DNA of 64,000 nt, taken from positions 13,958 through 77,957 of the forward strand of contig JAHIYH010000041.1 in assembly GCA_018814875.1 (NCBI GenBank). The letters run 5' to 3'. Shown here piece by piece: positions 4,406 through 62,347 of this stretch. Position numbers and translations under genes: made by a program. This DNA is from Patescibacteria group bacterium. GTDB lineage: Bacteria; Patescibacteriota; Gracilibacteria; Peribacterales; Peribacteraceae. Below the pieces are notes generated by a model. That model searched no databases. It saw nothing but the letters and a program-made list of their open reading frames with translations, and was not told where the DNA came from. Position 1 is the first letter of the stretch, and each line of letters begins with the position of its first letter.

Positions 4406-5338
4406 TTAGCTGTTGGCCGTCATCTCAATAACATCCAATTCCTTCAATTTACCAAGTTCCAGATAAGTTAGTGTCCACACTGTTTGTTTGAACACGGCAA
4501 GATAAGCGAAGAAGTAGCTGGCAACTCCAACAAGTGCGAGACCCAGAACAGTAGCGATGGAGTAGCCAACTATTGGTGGCATTACCAATGCTAATAGGAA
4601 TCCGATACCTATTACGATACCTGGAATAAGGAGAACCATCACAACATTCAGAACAACTCTGAGTACTATTACAAAGAAGAGTAGAAGTAGAAATACGATC
4701 TGACCCAAGTAACTGATTACCATTTTTAAACTCTGTTTAAGGGCTCGTCCGACACCGATTCGATTGTTGTCTTCATCTCTGCAGATGACTACCGCTTCTT
4801 CGGCAAAGATGCAGAAGAACTGGAAGATGTTGGATAATATATAGAAGATTACGAGGATGCCTATAGCAAATGGTGCTACTCCTCCTCCATATCGCAGTAG
4901 AATAGATGAGATGGTTATGATTACGGTTATTCTACCCAAGAAGAACATTTCATGAATCGCAAAGATTGGGAAGAAATTGTAAACAGCAAGAACCAGACCT
5001 CCTTTTACTTCTTCTCCCTTATATGATTTGGCGGCCAGACCAATGATCGCACCGCGAGAGAGGTTAGGCAAAAGCCATTCAATAATAAGCAGGATTATGA
5101 GTGTAATAATAAACGTCAAAAATAACCAGAATGGTACATGTTCCATTAATGTTGCTTCTACAGTAAAGAAACCAATGGGATCTCCCTTCCAATATGAAAT
5201 AGCAAACCACACCTGATAGATTAGAAGTTTGATATTAAGAAGCGTTTCGGCAATAGCAGCAGCATATCCCCATCGCCTAATCGGACGCTCCTTTTTTGTA
5301 ATGGCCCAAGCCTTGGCTATGATTTCGCGAGGTGTCAT
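4406..5338 (-). CDS. Polytopic membrane protein of unknown function
   Basis: 310-aa ORF with several long hydrophobic segments. I recognise no family motif. Confidence 0.7.
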   Translation of the reverse strand: MTPREIIAKAWAITKKERPIRRWGYAAAIAETLLNIKLLIYQVWFAISYWKGDPIGFFTVEATLMEHVPFWLFLTFIITLIILLIIEWLLPNLSRGAIIGLAAKSYKGEEVKGGLVLAVYNFFPIFAIHEMFFLGRITVIITISSILLRYGGGVAPFAIGILVIFYILSNIFQFFCIFAEEAVVICRDEDNNRIGVGRALKQSLKMVISYLGQIVFLLLLFFVIVLRVVLNVVMVLLIPGIVIGIGFLLALVMPPIVGYSIATVLGLALVGVASYFFAYLAVFKQTVWTLTYLELGKLKELDVIEMTANS

Positions 5339-6882
5339 TATTTTTCAGTGGAGATGAGAGATTGCAGCGGACTGTAAGAGTAATTCTTTCCAAGTACAAT
5401 TGTGACATCGCGTACTTCTTCTGGTGGGAGTTGTGATGGCATCGAAAGAGTTTTGCTCTTTAATAGAGATGAGAAGAATGGACCGAGATCATCTTCTCCT
5501 TCAGATTCCTTTGTAGGTGTTGCTACAAAAGATTCTTCCTGTTTTTCGAGTGAAGCATTAGCAATAACTTCAACGTTGAATCCATAGCGTGTTAGTTCGG
5601 TTGCCAGTTTGCGTGCGATGCCAGAAGCAGCACCTGCATTGAGTATAGAAATCGAAGGATTCTGGAGATGAATAGATCGATTGTTGAAGAGTAGCTGCTT
5701 GAGAGTAGTGATTTGCTTCCAAGTGACTGGAAATTCTGGAATCGAAACCGGAAGTAACACGGATGCACCTTCAAACAGATCACGCGGAGGTGTGTAAAGG
5801 AATCCTCCCGGTTCAATGAAACTATCATAGAGCGCATTGCGATCACTCAATTGCATTGTGATTACGTTTCCTTTATCTATATCTTTAAGAAGATTCAAAA
5901 GACCAATCATGTCACTGGTTGAAAGAGTTGATTCAACATTGTCATTGTATATCTTTAGGAAATTGAGAAGTGTGCCCGGTTTTTTGATGAGCCCTTCTTC
6001 TTTAGCTTTTTGTGCTAGTGCACGAATCAGCTGTTGCTGACGTGCTGAACGACCAAAGTCACTAGTTGTGTGTCGGCTGCGAGCGTATTTGAGGGCGGTT
6101 GCACCATCTAAGTGATTGAGACCTTTGTAAATTTCAAACGGATCGAATCCAAAGTTGCTGTCTGGGTATTCTGGATCATTGATGTCGTATGGCACTTCTA
6201 TATCTACACCACCAAGTGCATCAACAGCTTCCGTAAAGGCAACAAAGTCCACCTTAATCACGCCATGGATCTGCAGATCCATATGTCGTCCTATTTCATC
6301 ACCAAGTTCCTTGAGTGCTTCTTTTGCAGCAAAAGAGTCATCCATATCTTTCATGTACTTAAGGTATCCTTTGTAATCACGGTAAAAGGTATTCAGTTTT
6401 CCTTTCCCCATCTTTTCCGTGTGAAGCAGATACAAATCTCGTGGGAAGGATAGAAGAACTACGCTATTAGAATTTTTTGCATCGATGCTCGCCACCATGA
6501 GTGTATCCGTCAGATCTTTTCCGTCATGATCGCCGTCACCTTGTCCCATTAATAGTATGTTGGTGAATCCATTCTCGTCAGTAATAGGTGTGGATCCTGT
6601 AATAGATGCCAGTCTAGAGAAACTGATAATCTCTACAGAAAAGATTGCTTGTGCGAGTCCTGCGATTATCACAAATACGACAAATACAGAAACAAGTACG
6701 ATCAAGACGCGTTTGAGTATGCGGATACGCTCTTCTTGAAGTTTCTCCTGCTCTCGTCTTTTCTTCCAATCTTCATACCAATGCAGAAGAGGACGACTGA
6801 GCTCAGCTCCCCAGCCGATAATGGACTTAATAGGAAGAGATCGTTTTGGCTTGTCTTCCTCTATTTTGCGTACGGTAAACAT
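5338..6882 (-). CDS. LCP (LytR-CpsA-Psr) family protein with a C-terminal LytR_C-like domain
   Basis: N-terminal TM segment, an LCP core (LLMGQG.D...DLTDTLMVASID ... FPRDLY ... YARSRH..SDFGR..RQQ), and a C-terminal ISILNAGAASGIA-type domain. Confidence 0.88.
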   Translation of the reverse strand: MFTVRKIEEDKPKRSLPIKSIIGWGAELSRPLLHWYEDWKKRREQEKLQEERIRILKRVLIVLVSVFVVFVIIAGLAQAIFSVEIISFSRLASITGSTPITDENGFTNILLMGQGDGDHDGKDLTDTLMVASIDAKNSNSVVLLSFPRDLYLLHTEKMGKGKLNTFYRDYKGYLKYMKDMDDSFAAKEALKELGDEIGRHMDLQIHGVIKVDFVAFTEAVDALGGVDIEVPYDINDPEYPDSNFGFDPFEIYKGLNHLDGATALKYARSRHTTSDFGRSARQQQLIRALAQKAKEEGLIKKPGTLLNFLKIYNDNVESTLSTSDMIGLLNLLKDIDKGNVITMQLSDRNALYDSFIEPGGFLYTPPRDLFEGASVLLPVSIPEFPVTWKQITTLKQLLFNNRSIHLQNPSISILNAGAASGIARKLATELTRYGFNVEVIANASLEKQEESFVATPTKESEGEDDLGPFFSSLLKSKTLSMPSQLPPEEVRDVTIVLGKNYSYSPLQSLISTEK

Positions 6883-19727: not shown

Positions 19728-19878
19728 AAGTATGTGTGAGAATGTAGAATTTAGAATTAAGAATGCAGAATTGGAGACGTAAATGTTTCGAGTGAAGAAT
19801 TCTTAATTCTTAATTTTGAATTCTTAATTTCGGTATGTTTAGGGGGTGCATACATGGCTTACCTTTTAGGGAAACGTA

Positions 19879-26000: not shown

Positions 26001-26390
26001 ATGTCAGAAAAGCTTCCTCAGCGCGAGCGTAAACTTTTGGTCCTTGATGATAAAGCACGAGTAAAAGTTGAAGAATCCTATGGTGATCCACTTTATTCAT
26101 ATGAGCAGCGTCATAGTGTTATGGCCAATTTCATTGGTCCCCTGATGCGGCTTGGTCCTAGTATTATGATAAGTGATATCAAAACACACACACTTACTGC
26201 TGTGATTAGCGGGACTAGAAAAGATCTAGATAATGTACTTAAGCATTTTCAAGAATGCCCAGACGAAGGATGGATGGAAAATCTATTAAATTACGATGAT
26301 GAATTAGGAGCTACCCAAACGTCAGAGCCTTACGCCTCTATCTCGCAAAGCGAGACTACGGTGGACAAGCCGGAACTATCCGAAGGTTAA
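26001..26390 (+). CDS. Hypothetical protein (129 aa)
   Basis: I start at MSEKLPQRERK. The ORF-track start at 25851 translates a palindromic repeat. Confidence 0.5.
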   Translation: MSEKLPQRERKLLVLDDKARVKVEESYGDPLYSYEQRHSVMANFIGPLMRLGPSIMISDIKTHTLTAVISGTRKDLDNVLKHFQECPDEGWMENLLNYDDELGATQTSEPYASISQSETTVDKPELSEG

Positions 26391-27629
26391 TGCTTCGGGG
26401 GCGAATATAAGCAAGATTCCAAGTGCATACATAAGGAACCCGCCGAAGACGAGAGTGAAGCGGGCGTACTTTGAGGTGAGTCCGGTTGCATGAAGTGTGT
26501 ATACAGCAATCGCGAAAATCATGAAGTCGTCAATCATGTAGAGCAGGATGTAGAGTGCCATGTAGCTATAACGTGCAATGATGCTCACATCATTGAATGC
26601 CAGAATCTGTGTGAAGACTGCCGGAAGACCTGCGGTGCATACCAGCTCGATCAGATTTACAGAGAAGGCGAGTATCGCGACTCCAATTATCATCGCGGGC
26701 CATGCGGAGATCTTCATAACCTCCTTCATCTTTGCGATAGTCTTCTGGCGTTGTGACATGTTTGTAACTTGGCATTCATTTGGATTCTTTCCGAATGCTT
26801 CGTAGAAGTAGAAGCCTCCTCCTCCTATAGCTACGATTCCAATAATCTTCTGAACCCATAGGTTGTATCCAATAAGCAGGAATGCATTAAGCCATGCAGC
26901 AATGAAGAAGTAATACACCGCACCACTTACAAATAGGAACGTTCCACCGATCACCCAAACCTTCTTCATATCCTTTGTGCTGATAAGAAGTGTGAGTAGC
27001 GTGATTAAAACCCACATCGCACACGGATTAAATCCGTCTAGGAATCCGAGCAAAACCGAGAGAGCGGGGAGTGACATAAGTGTCAGATCAACCTTTCCCA
27101 AGATTGGAAGGTCAAAGACGTATTTATCCAGATCCACTTCGCATCCGTCTTCGCAAATTCCTTCCGATGATTGCACTTCAACATGGATATCGCTTTCCAG
27201 AAATTCGTTGAATGGTTGGCATCCTTCATTTGAATCTTGGCACCTTTTTAGTAGGAAGTTCATCAATTGTCCGGTTGTCTCGTGACTTTTGTATCCTTGA
27301 ATTACATTCTGATTAATGATTGTTGTTGGTACTCCTTGGTTTAAACCTAGTGCACGTTCTTGTAATTTTGCAAATAGCTTCTGAGTTTCAACTTCTGTAA
27401 TTTCGTGATATTCAATTTCCCATTCCTGAAGTTTGGCATACTCCTTTAGGTCTTTGCAGTGTGGGCAGTCTTTACTCACAAATACGACAATGTCTGCTCC
27501 TGTGTTCGAGATATATATACTATCGTCTGTGTCCTTTACTCCATCAAAAGCTCTATCAGGAAAGATGATCCCGAGTGCGACAACTGGGACAAGTGCAAGG
27601 CCGATAAAGAAGAGGAGACGTTTGTTCAT
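26376..27629 (-). CDS. Fusion of a glutaredoxin/thioredoxin-like domain to a CcdA/DsbD-type membrane thiol-disulfide transporter
   Basis: Signal/TM segment, a CPHC redox motif in a Grx-like fold, a Cys-rich linker, then a multi-TM domain with LDGFNPCAMWVL. Confidence 0.8.
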   Translation of the reverse strand: MNKRLLFFIGLALVPVVALGIIFPDRAFDGVKDTDDSIYISNTGADIVVFVSKDCPHCKDLKEYAKLQEWEIEYHEITEVETQKLFAKLQERALGLNQGVPTTIINQNVIQGYKSHETTGQLMNFLLKRCQDSNEGCQPFNEFLESDIHVEVQSSEGICEDGCEVDLDKYVFDLPILGKVDLTLMSLPALSVLLGFLDGFNPCAMWVLITLLTLLISTKDMKKVWVIGGTFLFVSGAVYYFFIAAWLNAFLLIGYNLWVQKIIGIVAIGGGGFYFYEAFGKNPNECQVTNMSQRQKTIAKMKEVMKISAWPAMIIGVAILAFSVNLIELVCTAGLPAVFTQILAFNDVSIIARYSYMALYILLYMIDDFMIFAIAVYTLHATGLTSKYARFTLVFGGFLMYALGILLIFAPEALTFG

Positions 27630-28074
27630 AATCTGTGTGAGTTCGCCTATTCTATCAGTAAATAATTCGGTGGAGAAAATAGATTATACGTTTTTTGTTT
27701 GATATGAATGTTATTCTTTTTTGAAAGATCAAAAAAGAACCATCCTTCGACAGTTCGATGATACTCACTGCAGGCAAGCTCAGGACAAGAAAAAAATCGT
27801 TGGCAAACGCAGACTCGCTCGTCGCATAACGCTTCTCTTACAGTGTAGCTCGGCAGAGACGAGTTATATTATGGTCTCGCCATATCTGCTCGCGTTTACA
27901 TTTGCATATAGCGTAAGCTCCTCGCTTTAGCCTTCGTTATGCTCATGCGGTACTACGGCCGACAGGCAAACAAATGCATTTGCCATTTCGTTTCTCTCGT
28001 ATTTATGCCCGTTTAAGCTAGCCCCTAGCTGCCTAGTGCCTAGCCCCTATGGTCGCCTAGTCCCTAATTCTTCC

Positions 28075-28102
28075 TTGCCATGAGCAGCTTTTTTGGTACA
28101 AT
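28075..28102 (+). promoter_or_regulatory. Promoter TTGCCA-16-TACAAT upstream of the first purP-like gene
   Basis: -35 at 28075-28080 and -10 at 28097-28102. The ATG lies only 12 nt after the -10, so the leader is very short or absent. Confidence 0.55.
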
Positions 28103-28114
28103 GCCCGAAATATC

Positions 28115-30545: not shown

Positions 30546-31130
30546 TCAAGTAAAGAGTAGACCATGATCCGGCGAGTCTAACTCTCCAAAAAGCGTTCGA
30601 ATGCGCGAGCGCTGTTCATGCAACTCCAGTATCGGATGTTTCGCGGTTTCTGCATCCAAGTAATCCATCATCGAACCAAATGTATGTACATCTGCAGAAC
30701 CTGGAACTAGAAAACGATCATGTTTCTCTGATAATCGGTTCGCTTTAGAATACTGGCGCACGACTTCTATGCCGCCAAATGGCAAGTTAATGATGTCGGT
30801 ATTCTCATCTATCGCTTCCTGAACACAAGCCGCAATTGGTTTGTCGGGTATCACACTAATGACGATTCGGTTCCTTCCCCGCAAACATGCTTTTTTCAGT
30901 TCTGGCGACCCAGAAAAGAAAGCAAACCACTCGTCGAATTCTTCGAGTTGGTCGGTCAGTTCTGACTCATCGTCCAACAACAACATTCGCAGTCGGATCG
31001 GATGGATTGTATCTTCCTGAATCTTCCCAAGGCGAGTTTCGACTCCTGCATTGACAGCCACGATGTGACGAATCTCATCATCGTTAGGCATCTCGGATGA
31101 TCCCTTTGAAGAATTCATTTGCTCGTGCAT
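30546..31130 (-). CDS. Hypothetical protein (194 aa)
   Basis: ORF only; no motif recognised. Confidence 0.55.
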   Translation of the reverse strand: MHEQMNSSKGSSEMPNDDEIRHIVAVNAGVETRLGKIQEDTIHPIRLRMLLLDDESELTDQLEEFDEWFAFFSGSPELKKACLRGRNRIVISVIPDKPIAACVQEAIDENTDIINLPFGGIEVVRQYSKANRLSEKHDRFLVPGSADVHTFGSMMDYLDAETAKHPILELHEQRSRIRTLFGELDSPDHGLLFT

Positions 31131-32130: not shown

Positions 32131-32280
32131 AAATTCTTAAGGGAAAATTACAAATACGTTTTGATTATAGTCTTGTCACTAAAGTCATGCCAGCTACGTT
32201 ACTTCGTTATTTCGTTATTTCGTTACTTTGATCACAATTAACCTTAGGATTGGCTACACACGAAATAACGAGATAACGAA

Positions 32281-33570
32281 TTAACGCTTCTCTGGTTCTT
32301 TATCAGATAGAATACCCTTCGTTATCTTCTTACCAACCTCCACCGCTGGTTGCCCATATGGATCGATTCTATAGAGTTTGCCTAGCAGAATGACTTCGGT
32401 CAGGAACAAGAAGAAGAGTTGCCCAAGTGTTTCTTCGGATAATTTTGGAAGTGTAATAGTGATGTGTGGGCGTTTGGCATTGGTTAGAGCTTGGCTTGTA
32501 CCTTTATGACACGCATCAAAGAGTTCGCCGAACTTCTTTCCTGCAATGTAAGAGAACGAGTCATCAACTTCCATTGGAACATTCACTGAGCCTTGATCTG
32601 CTTCTTTGATAAAGATGTGCCAGCACTTGCGTGGACCATCCTGCCACTGTTGCAATAATGAGTGCTGATCTTGTGTTCCGATTGCGGCGAGCGGAATGGG
32701 ATTATGTGTTTCCGTCTTGCCCAAGCTTTCGGCGATCAATTGCTGATCCCAGCGTGCGATTGATTCTAGTCTTTGGGAGTAGGGCATTATCACGCGGATC
32801 GGATAGTCGCGTTTAGTGTCTAACAAAAATTGCACACTTGCGAGAAGTGCAGCTGGATTCTCGTCTATGTCAGTATTCTGGCAAGCTGTATCCATCTTCT
32901 TGGCGCCTTCGGCGAATGCATCTATGTTTCCTCCAAGCAGTGCCAATGGCAAAAGTCCAACAGGAGTAAAAATCGAGTAACGTCCTCCGACTTCCGAAGG
33001 AATGGGGAGCATGGGGATATTATTCTCTTTGGCAAAGTTGTGGAGGATTCCTTTCTGTGGATCGGTGACTGCAATTACTCGTTCGGCTGCACGCTCCTTC
33101 ATTGCCTTCTTCATGTTCTCCCAACATAGAAAGAAGAGGCTCATTGGTTCCAGTGTTCCGCCCGACTTACTTGCGATCACCAGCATCGCGCGTCTCCAGT
33201 CGATCAACTTCATATTCATTTCGATCATCGCAGGATCTATAGAATCCAATAAAATGAACTCGATTGTATCCGGACTTTCGAATGCTTCCTGAATTACTTT
33301 TGGACCGAGCCCCGATCCTCCAATGCCAATCCATACCACCTGACGAATCTTCTCCGTTTTGGCATACTGTGCTGTATTTTTAACTGCGTTGATCGTTTGC
33401 TTGTTATATGGATCCATAGACCACAAGTGCTCGCCTTTCTTGCGTTCATGCAAAAAGTTCTCAGTATTACGTTTCATAGTTGTACGTAGTGCTGAGAGCT
33501 CTTGATCGGGTATTCCGAGTGATGGGGTAATTGTTTTGGCTAGGGCGCCGGTGATATCAAGGGTGATCAT
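32281..33570 (-). CDS. pgi: Glucose-6-phosphate isomerase
   Basis: 429 aa. Contains the IGIGGS.LGP motif and the SKSG.T.E motif of the SIS/PGI family. Confidence 0.9.
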   Translation of the reverse strand: MITLDITGALAKTITPSLGIPDQELSALRTTMKRNTENFLHERKKGEHLWSMDPYNKQTINAVKNTAQYAKTEKIRQVVWIGIGGSGLGPKVIQEAFESPDTIEFILLDSIDPAMIEMNMKLIDWRRAMLVIASKSGGTLEPMSLFFLCWENMKKAMKERAAERVIAVTDPQKGILHNFAKENNIPMLPIPSEVGGRYSIFTPVGLLPLALLGGNIDAFAEGAKKMDTACQNTDIDENPAALLASVQFLLDTKRDYPIRVIMPYSQRLESIARWDQQLIAESLGKTETHNPIPLAAIGTQDQHSLLQQWQDGPRKCWHIFIKEADQGSVNVPMEVDDSFSYIAGKKFGELFDACHKGTSQALTNAKRPHITITLPKLSEETLGQLFFLFLTEVILLGKLYRIDPYGQPAVEVGKKITKGILSDKEPEKR

Positions 33571-34401: not shown

Positions 34402-35604
34402 ATGCATATCCTTCAACGATTCATCGTTACTGCCGTGCTCCTTGTGGCACTTGTACCGCTCATGACGCTTGCGTTGACCGATCTGGGTGAAAGGAACAAG
34501 GCAGTAGAGAATCTAGATCAGGCGATTGAACGTGCGGTGGGTGAATACAATGCACAGCGTTACGTTAAGGGGGTCAACGAAGGCGATGCAGAAAAAGCAC
34601 GTGTGCGTCTTGGAGAAGTTGCACGGCTAAAAGGAAACACAGACATTCAACTTGCAGCTTATCGGAAAGTTTCCGATCAATTAAAAGAAAGGTTTGGTCT
34701 TGATGGTGAGAGAAAAGGTGGGTTGGAGAAAGTGCCATTCAAACTGTTCTCTTTGTATGAGAGTTATCCTATGCACGATGCAGCACCTACGAATCTCAAA
34801 TCACTCATGCTTTCTTTCGTCCCAGTTATTTCTGGTAAACAACTTCGCGAGCATGTTCTCAATTCAAAACTCTCTAATCTCAAAATACTTCTTACAGAGG
34901 TAGGGGAGAATGAAGACACAGTCGCATCTTTGGAGCAGAGTCAGAGTTCTCTTCAAAAAGAATATGATCAAGTTGCATACACTATTGATCGTGCAGAGAA
35001 GTACGGTGAAATTGGTGGTGGACGTACCGATGAGATCAAGCGTGTTATGGAAGAGGTGCATGCACAAGTCCTTCGTATGCAGTCGGATCTCGCACGTATA
35101 GATGCACGATTGCGTGAAAAAACTCAGCGCAAGCTAATCGAAAAGGGATTGATGGATCCAAAGACAGGAGATAACAAACAAGGAATCGTTCCATTCACAC
35201 CAAAATTTACATGGCCTGCATATGGTCCAATTTCGGCAACGTTCATGCAGCCTAGTTACCAGCAGTATTTTGGTATTCCGCATCGTGGGATGGATATTGT
35301 AATCGGGCAGGGGAGTCCGATTGTCAGTGCGGCCGATGGAGTTGTTTTCCTTACAAAAAATGGAGGAGTGAGCGGATACTCATATATACTCATCGGACAT
35401 CGTGGTGGATATGCAACGCTCTATGGTCACTTGTCACATATCTCAGTACATGCAGGGCAGGACGTTACAGCGGGAGAAATTATTGGAGCAAGCGGAGGTA
35501 CACCTAGGACGCGCGGTGCGGGGCCAACTACAACAGGAGCCCATCTACACTTTGAAGTGATCAAAGGTGGAGTGAATGTGAATCCGAGGGGGATGTTGCC
35601 TTAG
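34402..35604 (+). CDS. M23-family metallopeptidase with an N-terminal coiled coil
   Basis: Signal/TM segment, a long coiled coil, then a C-terminal HRGMDI ... GHLS ... GAHLHFEV LytM-type domain. Confidence 0.9.
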   Translation: MHILQRFIVTAVLLVALVPLMTLALTDLGERNKAVENLDQAIERAVGEYNAQRYVKGVNEGDAEKARVRLGEVARLKGNTDIQLAAYRKVSDQLKERFGLDGERKGGLEKVPFKLFSLYESYPMHDAAPTNLKSLMLSFVPVISGKQLREHVLNSKLSNLKILLTEVGENEDTVASLEQSQSSLQKEYDQVAYTIDRAEKYGEIGGGRTDEIKRVMEEVHAQVLRMQSDLARIDARLREKTQRKLIEKGLMDPKTGDNKQGIVPFTPKFTWPAYGPISATFMQPSYQQYFGIPHRGMDIVIGQGSPIVSAADGVVFLTKNGGVSGYSYILIGHRGGYATLYGHLSHISVHAGQDVTAGEIIGASGGTPRTRGAGPTTTGAHLHFEVIKGGVNVNPRGMLP

Positions 35605-37790: not shown

Positions 37791-37939
37791 GTCTGAATCA
37801 CCCTCCTTCGCCTCCCCACTTCGCCTCTTGGCTACGAGGGGCAGGCTGGGCTACGGCCGGTAAGCACGGATTACACTGATGACGATGCGCCCGTCTAATC
37901 CGTGACATCAGTGTAATCCCTTTAATCCGTGGTTCAGAC
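37791..37939. mobile_element. REP/MITE-like composite element E1 (termini GTCTGAATCAC ... GTGGTTCAGAC; core in reverse orientation)
   Basis: The core CCTTCGCCTCCCCACTTCGCCTCTTGGCTACGAGGGGCAGGCTGGGCTACGGCCGG is followed by GGATTACAC-type word arms, all bounded by terminal inverted repeats. Confidence 0.6.
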
Positions 37940-42683: not shown

Positions 42684-42797
42684 ATAGCGGATTGTTGGAT
42701 AGTTTCTAGTTTGCCGGTTTTTCGTTATTTCGTTATCTCGTTACATCGAAATAACCAAATAACGAAGTAACGAAATAACGAATAAACCCGATTTTCG

Positions 42798-48167: not shown

Positions 48168-48320
48168 AGCTATCAACATTCAACAATCAACCTTCAACAT
48201 TCAACCTTCAACATTCAACAATCAACATTCAACATTCAACCTTCAACAATGTTGTTGATAGTTGAAAGCATAGCGTGTTGATAGTTGATTGTTGCTATGA
48301 TAGTTGATTGTTGCTAGTTG
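48168..48320. repeat. Intergenic word palindrome (CAACATTCAAC vs GTTGATAGTTG)
   Basis: Tandem words are followed by reverse-complement words. Confidence 0.85.
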
Positions 48321-48791
48321 TTAGTTGCATTCTCCCCAAAGCCCCAGATTACTTTCTTGCGCCCTATGTTCTAGTTCCTTATATATCTCGCTACGGGGGT
48401 GGGGGAACAGTGGATAGTTTCTGGCAAAGCCTGAGTAGATCATTTGTCCTCCAATATCGATTTCATCTACAGAGAGATATCTGAGTAAACGGTCATATTT
48501 ATCACGATTCTCATCGATCTTGCTTTCGAGTATTGCTCGTTTTCCTTCAGCAAGCTCCCGCATTTTCTCCGTTGCCTGATCGCCAAAGCATTCATCCTTT
48601 TCCGGTGCATCTATTCCTACAATGCGGATATATTCCATCTTCCCCTTCAAGAGTACAGTGACAGTGTCTCCATCAACTATGCGTAAAATAATTGCTTCCT
48701 CTTTGGGAGGAGTAGTGGGGAGTGATGGTTGCGTGTTTGGTTGGCACGAGACTAACAAGATTGTGGCTGAGATAAGAACTATTTTTTTCAT
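48321..48791 (-). CDS. Thermonuclease (staphylococcal nuclease-like) lipoprotein
   Basis: I start at MKKIVLISATILLVSC (lipobox). The SNase core is V.DGDT ... IR..GIDAPE ... R.LRY. Confidence 0.85.
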   Translation of the reverse strand: MKKIVLISATILLVSCQPNTQPSLPTTPPKEEAIILRIVDGDTVTVLLKGKMEYIRIVGIDAPEKDECFGDQATEKMRELAEGKRAILESKIDENRDKYDRLLRYLSVDEIDIGGQMIYSGFARNYPLFPHPRSEIYKELEHRAQESNLGLWGECN

Positions 48792-57267: not shown

Positions 57268-57431
57268 AGCCAGAGCATTTTACGGGAATATTGAGGGCAT
57301 TCAATGGTGGTAGGGGAGATTTTATCATCAAAGTTCCAAGTTCCAAGTACCAAGTTCCAACACTATTTGGCACTTGGAACTTTTTACTTGGAACTTCTCC
57401 CATGAGTCGAGAAAAGTGATACTCTTTAACC

Positions 57432-59823: not shown

Positions 59824-60142
59824 AATGTAGATGGGGTATTAACAGAACTATGGTACATTATTTTGTTGTATGAGCACCAGAGTAAGTTTCAAGGTCCGAG
59901 TAATAAGTTCCAAGGTACAAGTTCCAAGTGCCAAGATTCGAATTTGGAACTTGATATTTGGAACTTTTTTGTTTGGTCTTGCTTCAGCCATGGAATCCAT
60001 TACCTACCTTACCTACCTTACCTACCTTACCTACCTTACCTATCTTACCTACCTTACCTACCTTACCTACCTTACCTATCTTACCTACCTTACCTTCTTT
60101 ATCTTTCCAAAGGATTTTGCCATGTTATGGTAGTATCTTCTT

Positions 60143-60772
60143 ATGATTTCTCCCGACCGCATCCTCTACGAAGATGATCACCTCCTTGCTGTGAACAAAC
60201 GCAGTGGGGAATTAGTGGTAAAAGGAAAGGGGAAAGTGGAAAAGTTACCGCTATTTGATTTTCTTAAGAAGGATTATCCGGGGCTGCGAGTGATGCACCG
60301 TTTAGATTTTGAGACGTCTGGGGTTGTTGTATTTGCGAAAGATAGGGCTGGGGCTGGGGCTAGGGCTGGGATGCAGAAGAAGTTGTATAGGGCTTTGGTT
60401 GTTGGAAGAGTTGCTCAAAGAAGTGGAGTGATAGATAAGAAGCTTGCAGCAAGAGGGCAGGGGAATGTAGAAGCTTCTACAAAATATAAGGTTCTTAAAT
60501 GTTGGAAAGATTTGAGCTACATAGAAGCCGAGATTGAGACTGGTCGGCATCATCAAATAAGAAAGCACTTTGCGAATATTGGGCATCCTTTAGTTTTGGA
60601 TAGTGTTTATGGTGACGAAAAGTTCAATAGGAAGTTTGGACGGGAGTTTAAAATGAGTAAGTTTTTCCTGCACGCATTTTCGGTTGAGCTGAAACATCCG
60701 ATTACGGGAAAGAATTTGAGAATCGAAGCTCCTATGCCGATGGCGTTTGAGTCTGTTCTTGCAAAGTTATAA
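60143..60772 (+). CDS. RluA-family pseudouridine synthase
   Basis: HRLD.ETSG catalytic motif and GR.HQIR.H. A GGGCTGGGG word repeat inside the CDS (60343-60370) encodes RAGAGARAG. Confidence 0.9.
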   Translation: MISPDRILYEDDHLLAVNKRSGELVVKGKGKVEKLPLFDFLKKDYPGLRVMHRLDFETSGVVVFAKDRAGAGARAGMQKKLYRALVVGRVAQRSGVIDKKLAARGQGNVEASTKYKVLKCWKDLSYIEAEIETGRHHQIRKHFANIGHPLVLDSVYGDEKFNRKFGREFKMSKFFLHAFSVELKHPITGKNLRIEAPMPMAFESVLAKL

Positions 60773-60945
60773 AAAAAGCCCCCGATGCGGGGCTACACTG
60801 CTTCGTCTTGTTTGGGCTGACGAAGCTGCCCACCCATTAGGGCTCTTCCCCGCAAACATTGGGGGTTGATATGAAGGACACTCTTCTTGCGCGAGAGCGC
60901 AGTCCGCATCGGGGTTCCCATTGCTAATCAAGTAGCAACAGGAGT
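60772..60945 (-). ncRNA. Candidate sRNA unit 1 (promoter TTGACT-16-TACAAT; GC hairpin plus U7 terminator)
   Basis: Minus strand: -35 at 60978-60973, -10 at 60956-60951, a 5' CGCTCACTCC, the hairpin TTGCTA/TAGCAA, the box GGGAACCCCGA, and a terminator at 60793-60771. An 11-bp long-range helix pairs 60914-60904 with 60790-60780. Confidence 0.5.
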
Positions 60946-61015
60946 GAGCGATTGTAGGTCGTTAAGAGCTACAGTCAAGAACTTTTCAAATTAATCTAGA
61001 AGCTAGCAGCTAATT

Positions 61016-61174
61016 AAAAAAGCCCCGAGGTGAAGGGCTTTATCATGCTTACATTAGCACCGTCGTTCCAAGCCTGAAAGGCTACCACAGGAGAGACGTC
61101 CAATTTGATTGGAAATAAAATCCTTTCACGATCACCTCGGGGTCCCCGATCGTACATAAAGAGACGATCAGAGT
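61016..61174 (-). ncRNA. Candidate sRNA unit 2 (promoter TTGACT-16-TAGAAT; hairpin plus U6 terminator)
   Basis: Minus strand: -35 at 61207-61202, -10 at 61185-61180, a 5' TGCTCACTC, the hairpin GATCGT/ACGATC, the box GGGGACCCCGA, and a terminator at 61038-61016. An 11-bp long-range helix pairs 61142-61132 with 61033-61023. Confidence 0.5.
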
Positions 61175-61262
61175 GAGCAATTCTAAGCTTCGCTTTAAAG
61201 GAGTCAATAACTTTTCAAACTAAGCTAGAAGCTAGCAGCTAAAAGCTATAAGCTAGTCCCGC

Positions 61263-62222
61263 ATGAGAGTCCTCTCTGGAATCCAACCCTCCGGCCAACT
61301 ACATCTAGGCAACTACTTTGGGTCTATCAAACCAAATCTTGATCATGTTGCAAAAGCAGATCAGAGCTTCTTCTTTATTGCAGATTTGCATGCTCTTACA
61401 ACTGTGCAGGATGCCGTGGCCCTCAAGCAAGCGCGGGAGGATATTATTTTGGATTACCTTGCATGCGGGTTTGATCCCGAGAAGGCGATCATCTTTGAGC
61501 AATCACAAATTCCTGAACATACGGAGTTGATGTGGATTCTTTCTACGGTTACTCCAATGGGGCTTTTGGAGCGGGCGGTGAGTTATAAGGATAAAGTACA
61601 AAATGGCATTCCGGCTTCTGCGGGGCTTCTCATTTATCCTGTTTTGATGGCTGCGGATATTCTCCTTTATGATGCGACACACGTTCCTGTTGGGAAAGAT
61701 CAGAAGCAGCATGTGGAGATGGCGCGGGATATTGCGCAGAAATTTAATACTATCTACAAGAAGGATGTACTCACAATTCCTGAGCCTGTAATTCGTGAAG
61801 ATGTGGCTGTTGTTCCCGGAACGGATGGACGCAAGATGAGCAAGAGCTACGGTAATACCATTCCGCTATTTGGAGACGAAAAAGTGATCAAGAAAGCAGT
61901 TATGGGAATGGTTACGGATTCTAAAGGTCCTAACGATCCAAAGGATCCTGAAAAGTCGACTATCTTCCATATCAATAAGCTACTTCTTTCTGACGAGAGC
62001 GCGGCGAAATTGGCAGAGGAATACAAAGCAGGAATTGCTTATGGAGATGCCAAGAAACGTTTATTGGAGGACTTGATGACATTCCTCAAACCATTACACG
62101 AGAGGCGAGCGAAGCTTACTGCTAAGGATGCACATAAGGTTCTTGAGGCAGGCAAGAAGCGTGCCGAATCGGTTGCACGTGGAACAATGGCACAGGTGCG
62201 GGTGGTGGTGGGGTTGGGGTAG
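61263..62222 (+). CDS. trpS: Tryptophanyl-tRNA synthetase
   Basis: 319 aa. SGIQPSG.LHLGNY, the KMSKS motif, and a length typical of TrpRS. Confidence 0.95.
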   Translation: MRVLSGIQPSGQLHLGNYFGSIKPNLDHVAKADQSFFFIADLHALTTVQDAVALKQAREDIILDYLACGFDPEKAIIFEQSQIPEHTELMWILSTVTPMGLLERAVSYKDKVQNGIPASAGLLIYPVLMAADILLYDATHVPVGKDQKQHVEMARDIAQKFNTIYKKDVLTIPEPVIREDVAVVPGTDGRKMSKSYGNTIPLFGDEKVIKKAVMGMVTDSKGPNDPKDPEKSTIFHINKLLLSDESAAKLAEEYKAGIAYGDAKKRLLEDLMTFLKPLHERRAKLTAKDAHKVLEAGKKRAESVARGTMAQVRVVVGLG

Positions 62223-62239: not shown

Positions 62240-62347
62240 GTCTGAACCACGGATTAAAGGGATTACACTGATTACACGGATTATTTACTTAGATTCGGAT
62301 GCTTCATCTGTGAAATCCGTGCAATCTGCGTAATCTGTGGTTCAGAC
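62240..62347. mobile_element. REP/MITE-like palindromic element E5 (termini GTCTGAACCAC ... GTGGTTCAGAC; no GC core)
   Basis: GGATTAAAGGGATTACAC-type arms lie in inverted orientation between trpS and the convergent STAS gene. Confidence 0.55.

Follow-up and report, generated by a model that had tools for sequence, protein, structure and literature searches.

A candidate Peribacteria-specific family of tandem structured RNA genes in the rluA-trpS gap

Introduction

What is encoded in the 490-nucleotide (nt) gap that separates rluA (PF00849, 60143-60772, plus strand) from trpS (PF00579, 61263-62222, plus strand) in a member of the Peribacteraceae? The gap lies in a stretch of 64,000 nt from a Patescibacteria group bacterium (assembly GCA_018814875.1, contig JAHIYH010000041.1, positions 13,958 to 77,957 of the forward strand), which is called the window here and whose coordinates are used throughout. 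A preliminary description of this DNA had proposed that the gap carries two RNA units, each running from a promoter to a terminator on the minus strand, with a choice between two folds at the 3' end that would resemble the logic of a riboswitch or an attenuator. The analysis reported here suggests that the two units are independent tandem genes for structured non-coding sibling RNAs that form a Peribacteria-specific family. We assign this reading a probability of roughly 0.6.

Results

Two promoter-bearing units on the minus strand

A consensus scan of positions 60500-61500 found exactly two promoter-like sites. Both are on the minus strand, and each matches the sigma-70 consensus at 10 of 12 positions. 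They belong to two tandem units that fill the minus strand of the rluA-trpS gap, unit 2 at 61242-61014 and unit 1 at 61013-60770. The elements listed in the preliminary description (promoters, boxes, helices and U-runs) are all present where it had placed them, and its minus-strand reading holds. Promoters and terminators are found only on the minus strand, in favour of reading the units as genes for sibling RNAs. The U-run of unit 1 overlaps the rluA stop codon by 2 nt, and the next feature on the minus strand is the antisense of rluA, with no gene downstream, as had been pointed out before. The elements that define the two units, all on the minus strand, are as follows.

61202-61242: unit 2 upstream block, a direct repeat made of two heptads (AGCTGCTAGCTTCTAG), the A-rich TTTGAAAAGTT and the -35 box TTGACT
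60973-61013: unit 1 upstream block, a direct repeat with the duplicate heptads, A-rich element and -35 box
61180-61207: unit 2 promoter, TTGACT-16-TAGAAT, 10/12 in the consensus scan
60951-60978: unit 1 promoter, TTGACT-16-TACAAT, 10/12 in the consensus scan
61178-61171 and 60949-60942: shared box GCTCACTC of unit 2 and unit 1, respectively
61147-61137: box GGGGACCCCGA, the unit 2 copy of GGGRACCCCGA
60919-60909: box GGGAACCCCGA, the unit 1 copy of GGGRACCCCGA
61014-61178: predicted unit 2 RNA of about 165 nt, 5' end approximate
60770-60949: predicted unit 1 RNA of about 180 nt, 5' end approximate

The two units resemble each other block by block. The upstream direct repeat of 41 nt is 93% identical between them (61242-61202 versus 61013-60973, from the repeat finder), so that the conserved block reaches further upstream than noted earlier, to 61242 and 61013. 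The -10 box together with the GCTCACTC block is 87% identical and the box GGGRACCCCGA 91% identical; the 3' ends are also among the shared blocks identified by the repeat finder. The direct repeats, D1 to D5, are spaced 228-245 nt apart between the units. Within the 64 kb, the 35-nt upstream pattern and the boxed pattern have no occurrences beyond these two sites, with 0 expected. In contrast, the promoter spacers of the two units cannot be aligned, whereas the -35/upstream elements, the -10 boxes, the shared boxes and the 3' end are kept. The interiors, of 113 and 98 nt, do not align and are unrelated between the copies, in agreement with the unrelated interior of about 110 nt in the preliminary description. 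Because the spacers and interiors are saturated with changes while the shared blocks are kept, the copies are old and the blocks under selection. Conservation in this block-wise manner indicates selection on the putative genes rather than recent duplication. The predicted 5' ends are approximate, and GCTCACTC may belong in part to promoter-proximal DNA and not to the RNA.

An independent Logan assembly from another run of the Sequence Read Archive (L107) carries 480 nt of the same sequence, which excludes an assembly artefact. Exact-protein look-ups returned only short Logan contigs; L107 is the only one to cover the region and, being 100% identical, contributes no variation.

A conserved fold plan with covarying helices

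Both predicted RNAs are much more stable than shuffled sequences. The minimum free energy (MFE) is -79.0 kcal/mol for unit 1 (z -5.2) and -60.4 kcal/mol for unit 2 (z -4.8), and 0 of 200 shuffled sequences were as good. The two folds follow a common plan, with a short 5' tail, a hairpin P1 in a CU-rich 5' segment, a 1-nt linker, a long-range helix P2 closed around a multi-hairpin interior, and a U-tail. The elements of this plan and of the alternative fold at the 3' end, all on the minus strand, are given below.

61144-61173: unit 2 hairpin P1 (CUCUGAUCGU / ACGAUCGGGG), from the fold, with compensatory pairs relative to unit 1
60916-60943: unit 1 hairpin P1 (UCCUGUUGCUA / UAGCAAUGGGA), from the fold
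61132-61142: unit 2 P2 5' arm CCCCGAGGUGA, overlapping box GGGGACCCCGA; pairing probability 0.83-1.0
61023-61033: unit 2 P2 3' arm UCACCUCGGGG, from the inverted repeat and pairing probabilities
60904-60914: unit 1 P2 5' arm CCCCGAUGCGG, overlapping box GGGAACCCCGA; pairing probability 0.93-1.0
60780-60790: unit 1 P2 3' arm CCGCAUCGGGG, from the inverted repeat and pairing probabilities
61016-61041: unit 2 alternative local terminator, hairpin 61041-61019 with U-run 61021-61016; -11.2 kcal/mol, with 0.6% of shuffled-Y controls as stable (Y is defined below)
60771-60794: unit 1 alternative local terminator, hairpin 60794-60777 with U-run 60777-60771; -12.4 kcal/mol

The 5' hairpin P1 is present as the preliminary description had it, with 9-11 pairs instead of the 6 bp given there, and shows three compensatory pairs between the two window units. 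P2 comprises 11 bp that are 100% complementary in both units, CCCCGAGGTGA/TCACCTCGGGG in unit 2 (61142-61132 / 61033-61023) and CCCCGATGCGG/CCGCATCGGGG in unit 1 (60914-60904 / 60790-60780). The helices differ between the units at 3 of the 11 positions and all three differences are compensated, which bears out the covarying long-range helix described earlier. RNAalifold on a MAFFT alignment of the window units recovered P1 and missed P2, as MAFFT had offset the arms by 1 nt; covariation in P2 was counted on a hand alignment instead.

The 3' strand of P2 has a second possible partner. In all nine units now available, two from the window and seven from the relatives described below, an adjacent upstream segment, Y, is able to pair with the final bases of the 3' arm, giving a canonical local terminator hairpin of -6.6 to -12.4 kcal/mol. 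This hairpin is significantly better than the shuffled-Y controls in six of the nine. The pairing probability of P2 is about 1 at equilibrium. Blocking its 5' arm costs 10-14 kcal/mol and switches the MFE structure to the local terminator. While the RNA is nascent, folding prediction also leaves the P2 5' arm largely free. The two exclusive 3' folds of the preliminary description are thus real, and occur in 9/9 units. The riboswitch or attenuator logic that it attached to them is not supported: in either fold a GC helix immediately precedes the U-run, and no antiterminator is formed; P2 has a probability of about 1.0; and the enclosed interiors show no relation between copies.

Units of the same design in other Peribacteria

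The lineage is sparsely sampled. The best match to the window TrpS is 92% identical (L002), and further matches, all from Peribacter or Peribacteria, are at most 73% identical; a search for RluA homologues gave identities of 83% and 72%, followed by values of at most 66%. The TrpS matches place the window within the Peribacteria/Peregrinibacteria. Retrieval by TrpS-based synteny yielded useful loci from genome contigs, and metagenome contigs added 13 Peribacteria loci. The order rluA to trpS is kept in 43 loci, with spacers mostly of 17-140 nt. In most Peribacteria the gap holds a single long hairpin that resembles a terminator or an insulator, and no units were found in the rluA-trpS spacers of the 13 added metagenome loci.

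Homologous units and covariation in related genomes, on which the preliminary description had made its proposal depend, were found in three Peribacteria. Seven further units of the same design occupy the syntenic position, again on the strand opposite to the genes, one in L005, two in L032 and four in L034. The TrpS proteins of these three are only 56-69% identical to that of the window. Their units consist of a CU-rich 5' part with a small hairpin, then a perfect helix of 10-14 bp (-18 to -27 kcal/mol) and a U-run. P2 encloses 66-126 nt in them, and its 5' arm begins 1-4 nt after P1. Promoter-like sites lie upstream of five of the seven. Some motifs are shared with the window as well. In L034a, GCTCTCACTCCTG follows directly after a -10-like box, at the position where the window has GCTCACTCCTG, and the P2 5' arms of L034a-c (ACCGAGGCGG, AACCGAGGCGG and GACCGAGGTGG) match CCCCGAGGTGA and CCCCGATGCGG of the window.

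An nhmmer search with unit 2 against 2 Mb of loci and the rest of the window returned one match only (E 0.41). It covers the 3' 100 nt of unit 2 and is located exactly at the L005 unit; with unit 1, no match was obtained in the same 2 Mb of loci. Helices of at least 11 bp followed by a U-run number 6 in 8.3 kb of rluA-trpS gap DNA, versus 0.066 expected from a background of about 2 Mb (P ~1e-10). When the five units of the CCGAGG type are aligned by hand, 54 of 55 P2 cells are paired and 5 of 11 columns have compensatory double changes; these counts are biased upward, since the foreign units were found partly through a helix search. This ascertainment bias weighs less on the enrichment of helices, on the motifs in common and on the nhmmer match.

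Two further scans returned nothing of the same kind. The pattern TCGGGGTYCCC-N(14-32)-GAGTGAGCNATT gave 0 matches in metagenome contigs, and a looser version gave 0 in viral contigs. A pattern of the upstream (UP) element plus the -35 box had 25 matches in viral contigs, which were judged to be generic AT-rich promoters. One more candidate with a helix and a U-run, in L016, is an ordinary gene terminator.

The closest relatives, L002 and L108, have spacers with an AGCTnnn heptad array upstream of trpS and a hairpin. A 14-mer, TTTTTTAATTAGCT, is common to L002 and the junction of unit 2 and unit 1 in the window. This sharing is compatible with either the loss of a unit in L002 or insertion beside a pre-existing T-run. 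It is noted that the L002 contig (JAIPIN010000021.1) is labelled as a metagenome-assembled genome of Kiritimatiellales, with TrpS 92% and RluA 83% identical to those of the window. As rluA and trpS are also arranged in the manner of Peribacteria, and the heptad array is present, this contig was probably assigned to the wrong bin. In two Peribacteraceae, L004 (2642-3001) and L020 (2757-3001), the rluA-trpS spacer is enlarged, and by eye a plus-strand TTGACT promoter-like site is followed by a conserved GC-rich structured stretch that runs into trpS. This stretch may be a plus-strand trpS leader.

Known RNA families

Neither RNA had been recognised earlier as 6S, SRP, tmRNA or a T-box, and Rfam agrees. 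A scan of the whole window at gathering score with the 4227 models of Rfam 15, which include T-box, 6S, SRP, tmRNA, OmrA-B, PrrF and Y RNA, returned 3 tRNAs only. For 60700-61300 at E<=10 there were 9 chance-level matches, the best with 21 bits against a gathering score of 80, and the L005, L032 and L034 loci gave only a tRNA at E<=1. The region thus has no confident assignment to a known family, including a plus-strand leader of trpS, which the preliminary description had named as a possible outcome.

Several specific identities were considered and rejected. For a T-box leader of trpS on the plus strand, there is no T-box match even at E<=10. The likely -10 box of trpS, located 10 nt before the ATG, also leaves no room for a leader. 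A TIGR-Tas guide array, as found in members of the Candidate Phyla Radiation (CPR) and phages, does not fit two units that each have their own promoter and terminator beside housekeeping genes. A sponge of the CsrB/RsmZ kind was rejected on reading the sequence, as each unit has only 3-4 GGA motifs and these lie outside hairpin loops. The idea of an anti-Shine-Dalgarno seed is weakened by the rarity of Shine-Dalgarno (SD) sequences in this genome. No antisense target was found in the window, where the sole long match is a same-sense 15-mer. This exact match, ATGTTTGCGGGGAAG, links 60845-60859 in the unit 1 interior with 30874-30888 on the sense strand of a minus-strand gene (30546-31130), where about 0.02 such matches are expected by chance; being same-sense, it is not an antisense target site. 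A full-text literature search for non-coding or small RNAs of Peregrinibacteria and CPR found nothing relevant.

Genomic context

Two features of the locus lie between trpS and unit 2.

61222-61256: heptad array AAGCTAG x5 (from Tandem Repeats Finder, TRF), kept upstream of trpS in L002, L108 and L019
61247-61252, plus strand: likely trpS -10 box TATAAG, 10 nt before the ATG and within the heptad array, proposed from the genome-wide leaderless pattern

Transcription of trpS appears to start from this -10 box only 10 nt upstream of the ATG, as for most genes of the window. Among about 52 long open reading frames (ORFs) of the window (e.g. 5338-6882, 34402-35604, 60143-60772 and 61263-62222), most have a -10-like box such as TATAAT, TAGACT, TAGTAT or TATCAT at 6-10 nt before the start, and an SD motif (GGAG/GAGG) is found upstream in only about 5 of the 52. 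The genome appears to use mainly leaderless or near-leaderless mRNAs.

Intergenic DNA of the window is dense in repeats with a period of 6-9 nt. TRF reports 127 tandem-repeat rows in the 64 kb, for example at 57331-57396, 48173-48327, 19739-19829, 32197-32286, 42720-42782, 60000-60095 and 61222-61256. Many of these arrays are inverted pairs able to fold into long hairpins, e.g. AAGTTCC x4 facing TTGGAAC x4. The same habit of inverted tandem repeats is seen in the rluA-trpS spacers of the Peribacteria L014, L116 and L112, and AAGCTAG x5 beside unit 2 is one instance of it.

A REP-like element is present in two copies, at 62240-62347 (minus strand) and 37791-37939 (plus strand). In each copy, GGATTA/TAATCC repeats form a long imperfect hairpin with GTCTGAAYCAC/GTGGTTCAGAC as its closing sequences and a T-run after it, and the last 50 nt or so are nearly identical. 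One of the copies lies just downstream of trpS, after a STAS-domain gene on the other strand. Another intergenic region, of 485 nt (27630-28114), contains short repeats of the CTAGG type; on its minus strand, an 11-bp long-range helix (27985/27801) with a T-run is located upstream of the gene 26376-27629. This region could be another structured RNA or a leader, and has no Rfam match at gathering score.

Discussion

Tandem sibling RNAs as the probable explanation

As predicted from the DNA, the locus has at least two related, adjacent copies on the same strand, each with a putative promoter and Rho-independent terminator of its own, and no conserved ORF, which is how tandem genes for sibling small RNAs (sRNAs) are defined. 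This is a new family of a familiar kind, with a 3' architecture that is unusual yet not unprecedented. A trans-acting regulatory role is most likely.

The nearest parallels are the OmrA/OmrB pair of E. coli and the PrrF1-PrrF2 pair of P. aeruginosa. OmrA and OmrB are encoded by tandem genes whose products are nearly identical over the first 21 and the last 35 nt, with a divergent centre, and related species differ in how many copies they have and in how these are arranged (PMC4211561). Like them, the window units are adjacent on one strand, carry a predicted promoter and an intrinsic terminator each, and have shared ends around a divergent centre, so that the same logic of conserved versus variable parts can be transferred to them. 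Unlike OmrA and OmrB, the window units are twice as long (165-180 versus 82-88 nt), and their conserved ends are the paired bases of P1 and P2 and not a single-stranded 5' seed. They have no sequence or Rfam relation to this pair, and they occur in a CPR bacterium whose mRNAs appear to be mostly leaderless. With PrrF1 and PrrF2 the units have in common that they are tandem siblings with a short spacer, unit 1 starting about 60 nt after unit 2. In P. aeruginosa, read-through of the first terminator gives a third, longer RNA, PrrH (PMC4211561). No homology to the PrrF RNAs and no Fur-box-like operator were identified in the window, both 3' folds are terminator-like, and read-through is hypothetical here.

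A possible mode of action can be outlined on this basis. Transcription would end through the local hairpin, or through P2 itself, together with the U-run. P2, being 10-14 kcal/mol more stable, would then capture the 3' strand at equilibrium and yield a compact scaffold with protected ends. The conserved P1 and P2 bases, the junction GGGRA-CCCCGA and the 3' U-tail would be the platform that the siblings share for a partner, which may be a protein or a set of common targets, and the divergent interior hairpins would give each sibling its own specificity, following the logic proposed for OmrA/OmrB. The identical upstream blocks would imply co-regulated promoters, and the divergent trpS promoter 16 nt away may be regulated along with them. 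A longer, PrrH-like RNA could arise if transcription continued from unit 2 into unit 1; nothing here points to that. Ribosome-binding sites are unlikely as the RNA targets, as the genome is largely leaderless and SD-poor.

A number of observations weigh against the sibling-RNA reading. The same shortage of SD sequences removes the commonest sRNA target site, and the bases common to both window units are all predicted to be paired, leaving no obvious single-stranded seed. Units are present in only 4 of the 43 syntenic loci, and the closest relatives, L002 with an 81-nt spacer and L108 with a 75-nt spacer, lack them. Sequence similarity across species is weak, with a best nhmmer E value of 0.41, and the boxed-pattern scans of metagenome and viral contigs were empty. 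The upward bias of the covariation counts has been mentioned above. The genome is also generally rich in intergenic repeats that form hairpins.

Alternative explanations

The placement of the units against the end of rluA raises the question of a local function. As a cis-antisense element or insulator, the convergent units would mainly keep transcription of rluA from running on into trpS, or counteract it, either through transcriptional interference or because the RNAs pair perfectly, as antisense, with the 3' untranslated region of rluA; trpS would be expressed from its own near-leaderless promoter, and the RNAs would have no targets in trans. Most Peribacteria do have one long terminator-like hairpin in this gap, trpS has an apparent -10 box of its own 6-10 nt before the ATG in many species, and in the window there is no convincing plus-strand terminator after rluA, whose stop codon is overlapped by the unit 1 U-run. 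However, a simple hairpin suffices in 39 of the 43 relatives, and an insulator would leave unexplained why there are one to four promoter-bearing units with conserved P1 and P2, covariation and upstream blocks; two units would be redundant. We consider this explanation unlikely, while giving it some weight. It is also rather improbable that the units are non-functional or selfish structures, such as remnants of duplicated segments, an element like a miniature inverted-repeat transposable element with terminal inverted repeats, or a product of the hairpin-repeat habit of the lineage, with fortuitous matches to promoters and terminators. Such an origin would fit the many inverted pairs among the 127 tandem-repeat rows, the long hairpins of REP-like type at other sites of the window, and the patchy distribution with an "empty site" in the closest relatives. 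The units themselves are complex and non-repetitive, though. Their inverted repeats change in a compensatory way and not independently, as the ends of a transposon would; neither the 64-kb window nor 2 Mb of related loci contains dispersed copies; the arms are not visibly flanked by a target-site duplication; and the neighbours are housekeeping genes. The promoter elements, kept block-wise around a saturated spacer, argue for selection.

The two 3' folds could instead represent a regulated decision, driven by a ligand, a protein or an RNA that binds the 5' arm or the interior. It would govern whether transcription passes from unit 2 on to unit 1, yielding a long PrrH-like RNA, and beyond unit 1 into the antisense of rluA. 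The exclusive folds in 9/9 units, with a significant local hairpin in 6/9, the switch of the MFE structure to the local terminator once the 5' arm is blocked, and the precedent of PrrH, made by terminator read-through from PrrF1-PrrF2 (PMC4211561), would all fit such an orphan switch. As in attenuators, the 3' terminator strand can pair with a distant upstream segment, giving two exclusive folds. Unlike in attenuators, the alternative helix uses the strand proximal to the U-run and ends right before it, so that both folds retain a GC helix there and no antiterminator results. P2 is preferred by 10-14 kcal/mol, with a probability of about 1. In contrast to riboswitches, there is no conserved ligand-binding core, the interior at the position of an aptamer being unrelated between the copies, no match to any Rfam riboswitch family, and no gene downstream on the minus strand that could be controlled. 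The riboswitch or attenuator reading is not supported, and we regard a switch of this kind as very unlikely. Lastly, each unit might encode a short peptide, and ORFs of 42-54 codons do exist in both window units. No ORF is kept in position, frame or sequence among the nine units, however, and L034c has none of at least 12 codons. Between units 1 and 2 the reading frame of the shared box differs, and neither a start codon at the predicted transcription start nor an SD sequence is found. Small-protein genes are accordingly given hardly any probability.

Implications for riboregulation in CPR bacteria

If the reading as tandem sibling RNA genes is extended, the units could be the first recognisable genes for regulatory RNAs in Peribacteria, a CPR lineage. 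They would represent a lineage-specific family of 130-220 nt with a conserved design in which a canonical local terminator ends transcription and a distant 5' arm then takes over its 3' strand, a "terminator hand-over" that creates a scaffold displaying a freely evolving multi-hairpin module, amplified in tandem (0-4 copies) beside the trpS promoter and co-regulated with it. This extended proposal is tentative, and we think it rather doubtful in its full form.

The find is a modest one, a small and patchy family of candidate RNAs. It is an RNA family in a phylum for which the literature searched showed no riboregulators. In such organisms the usual sRNA target, the SD region, is largely absent, with mostly leaderless mRNAs as seen here. 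The competition of a local terminator with a stronger long-range helix provides a testable case of co-transcriptional folding followed by refolding. With its own putative promoters, covarying helices and variable tandem copy number, the family may serve as a starting point for the study of riboregulation in CPR bacteria, whose tiny genomes contain few regulators.

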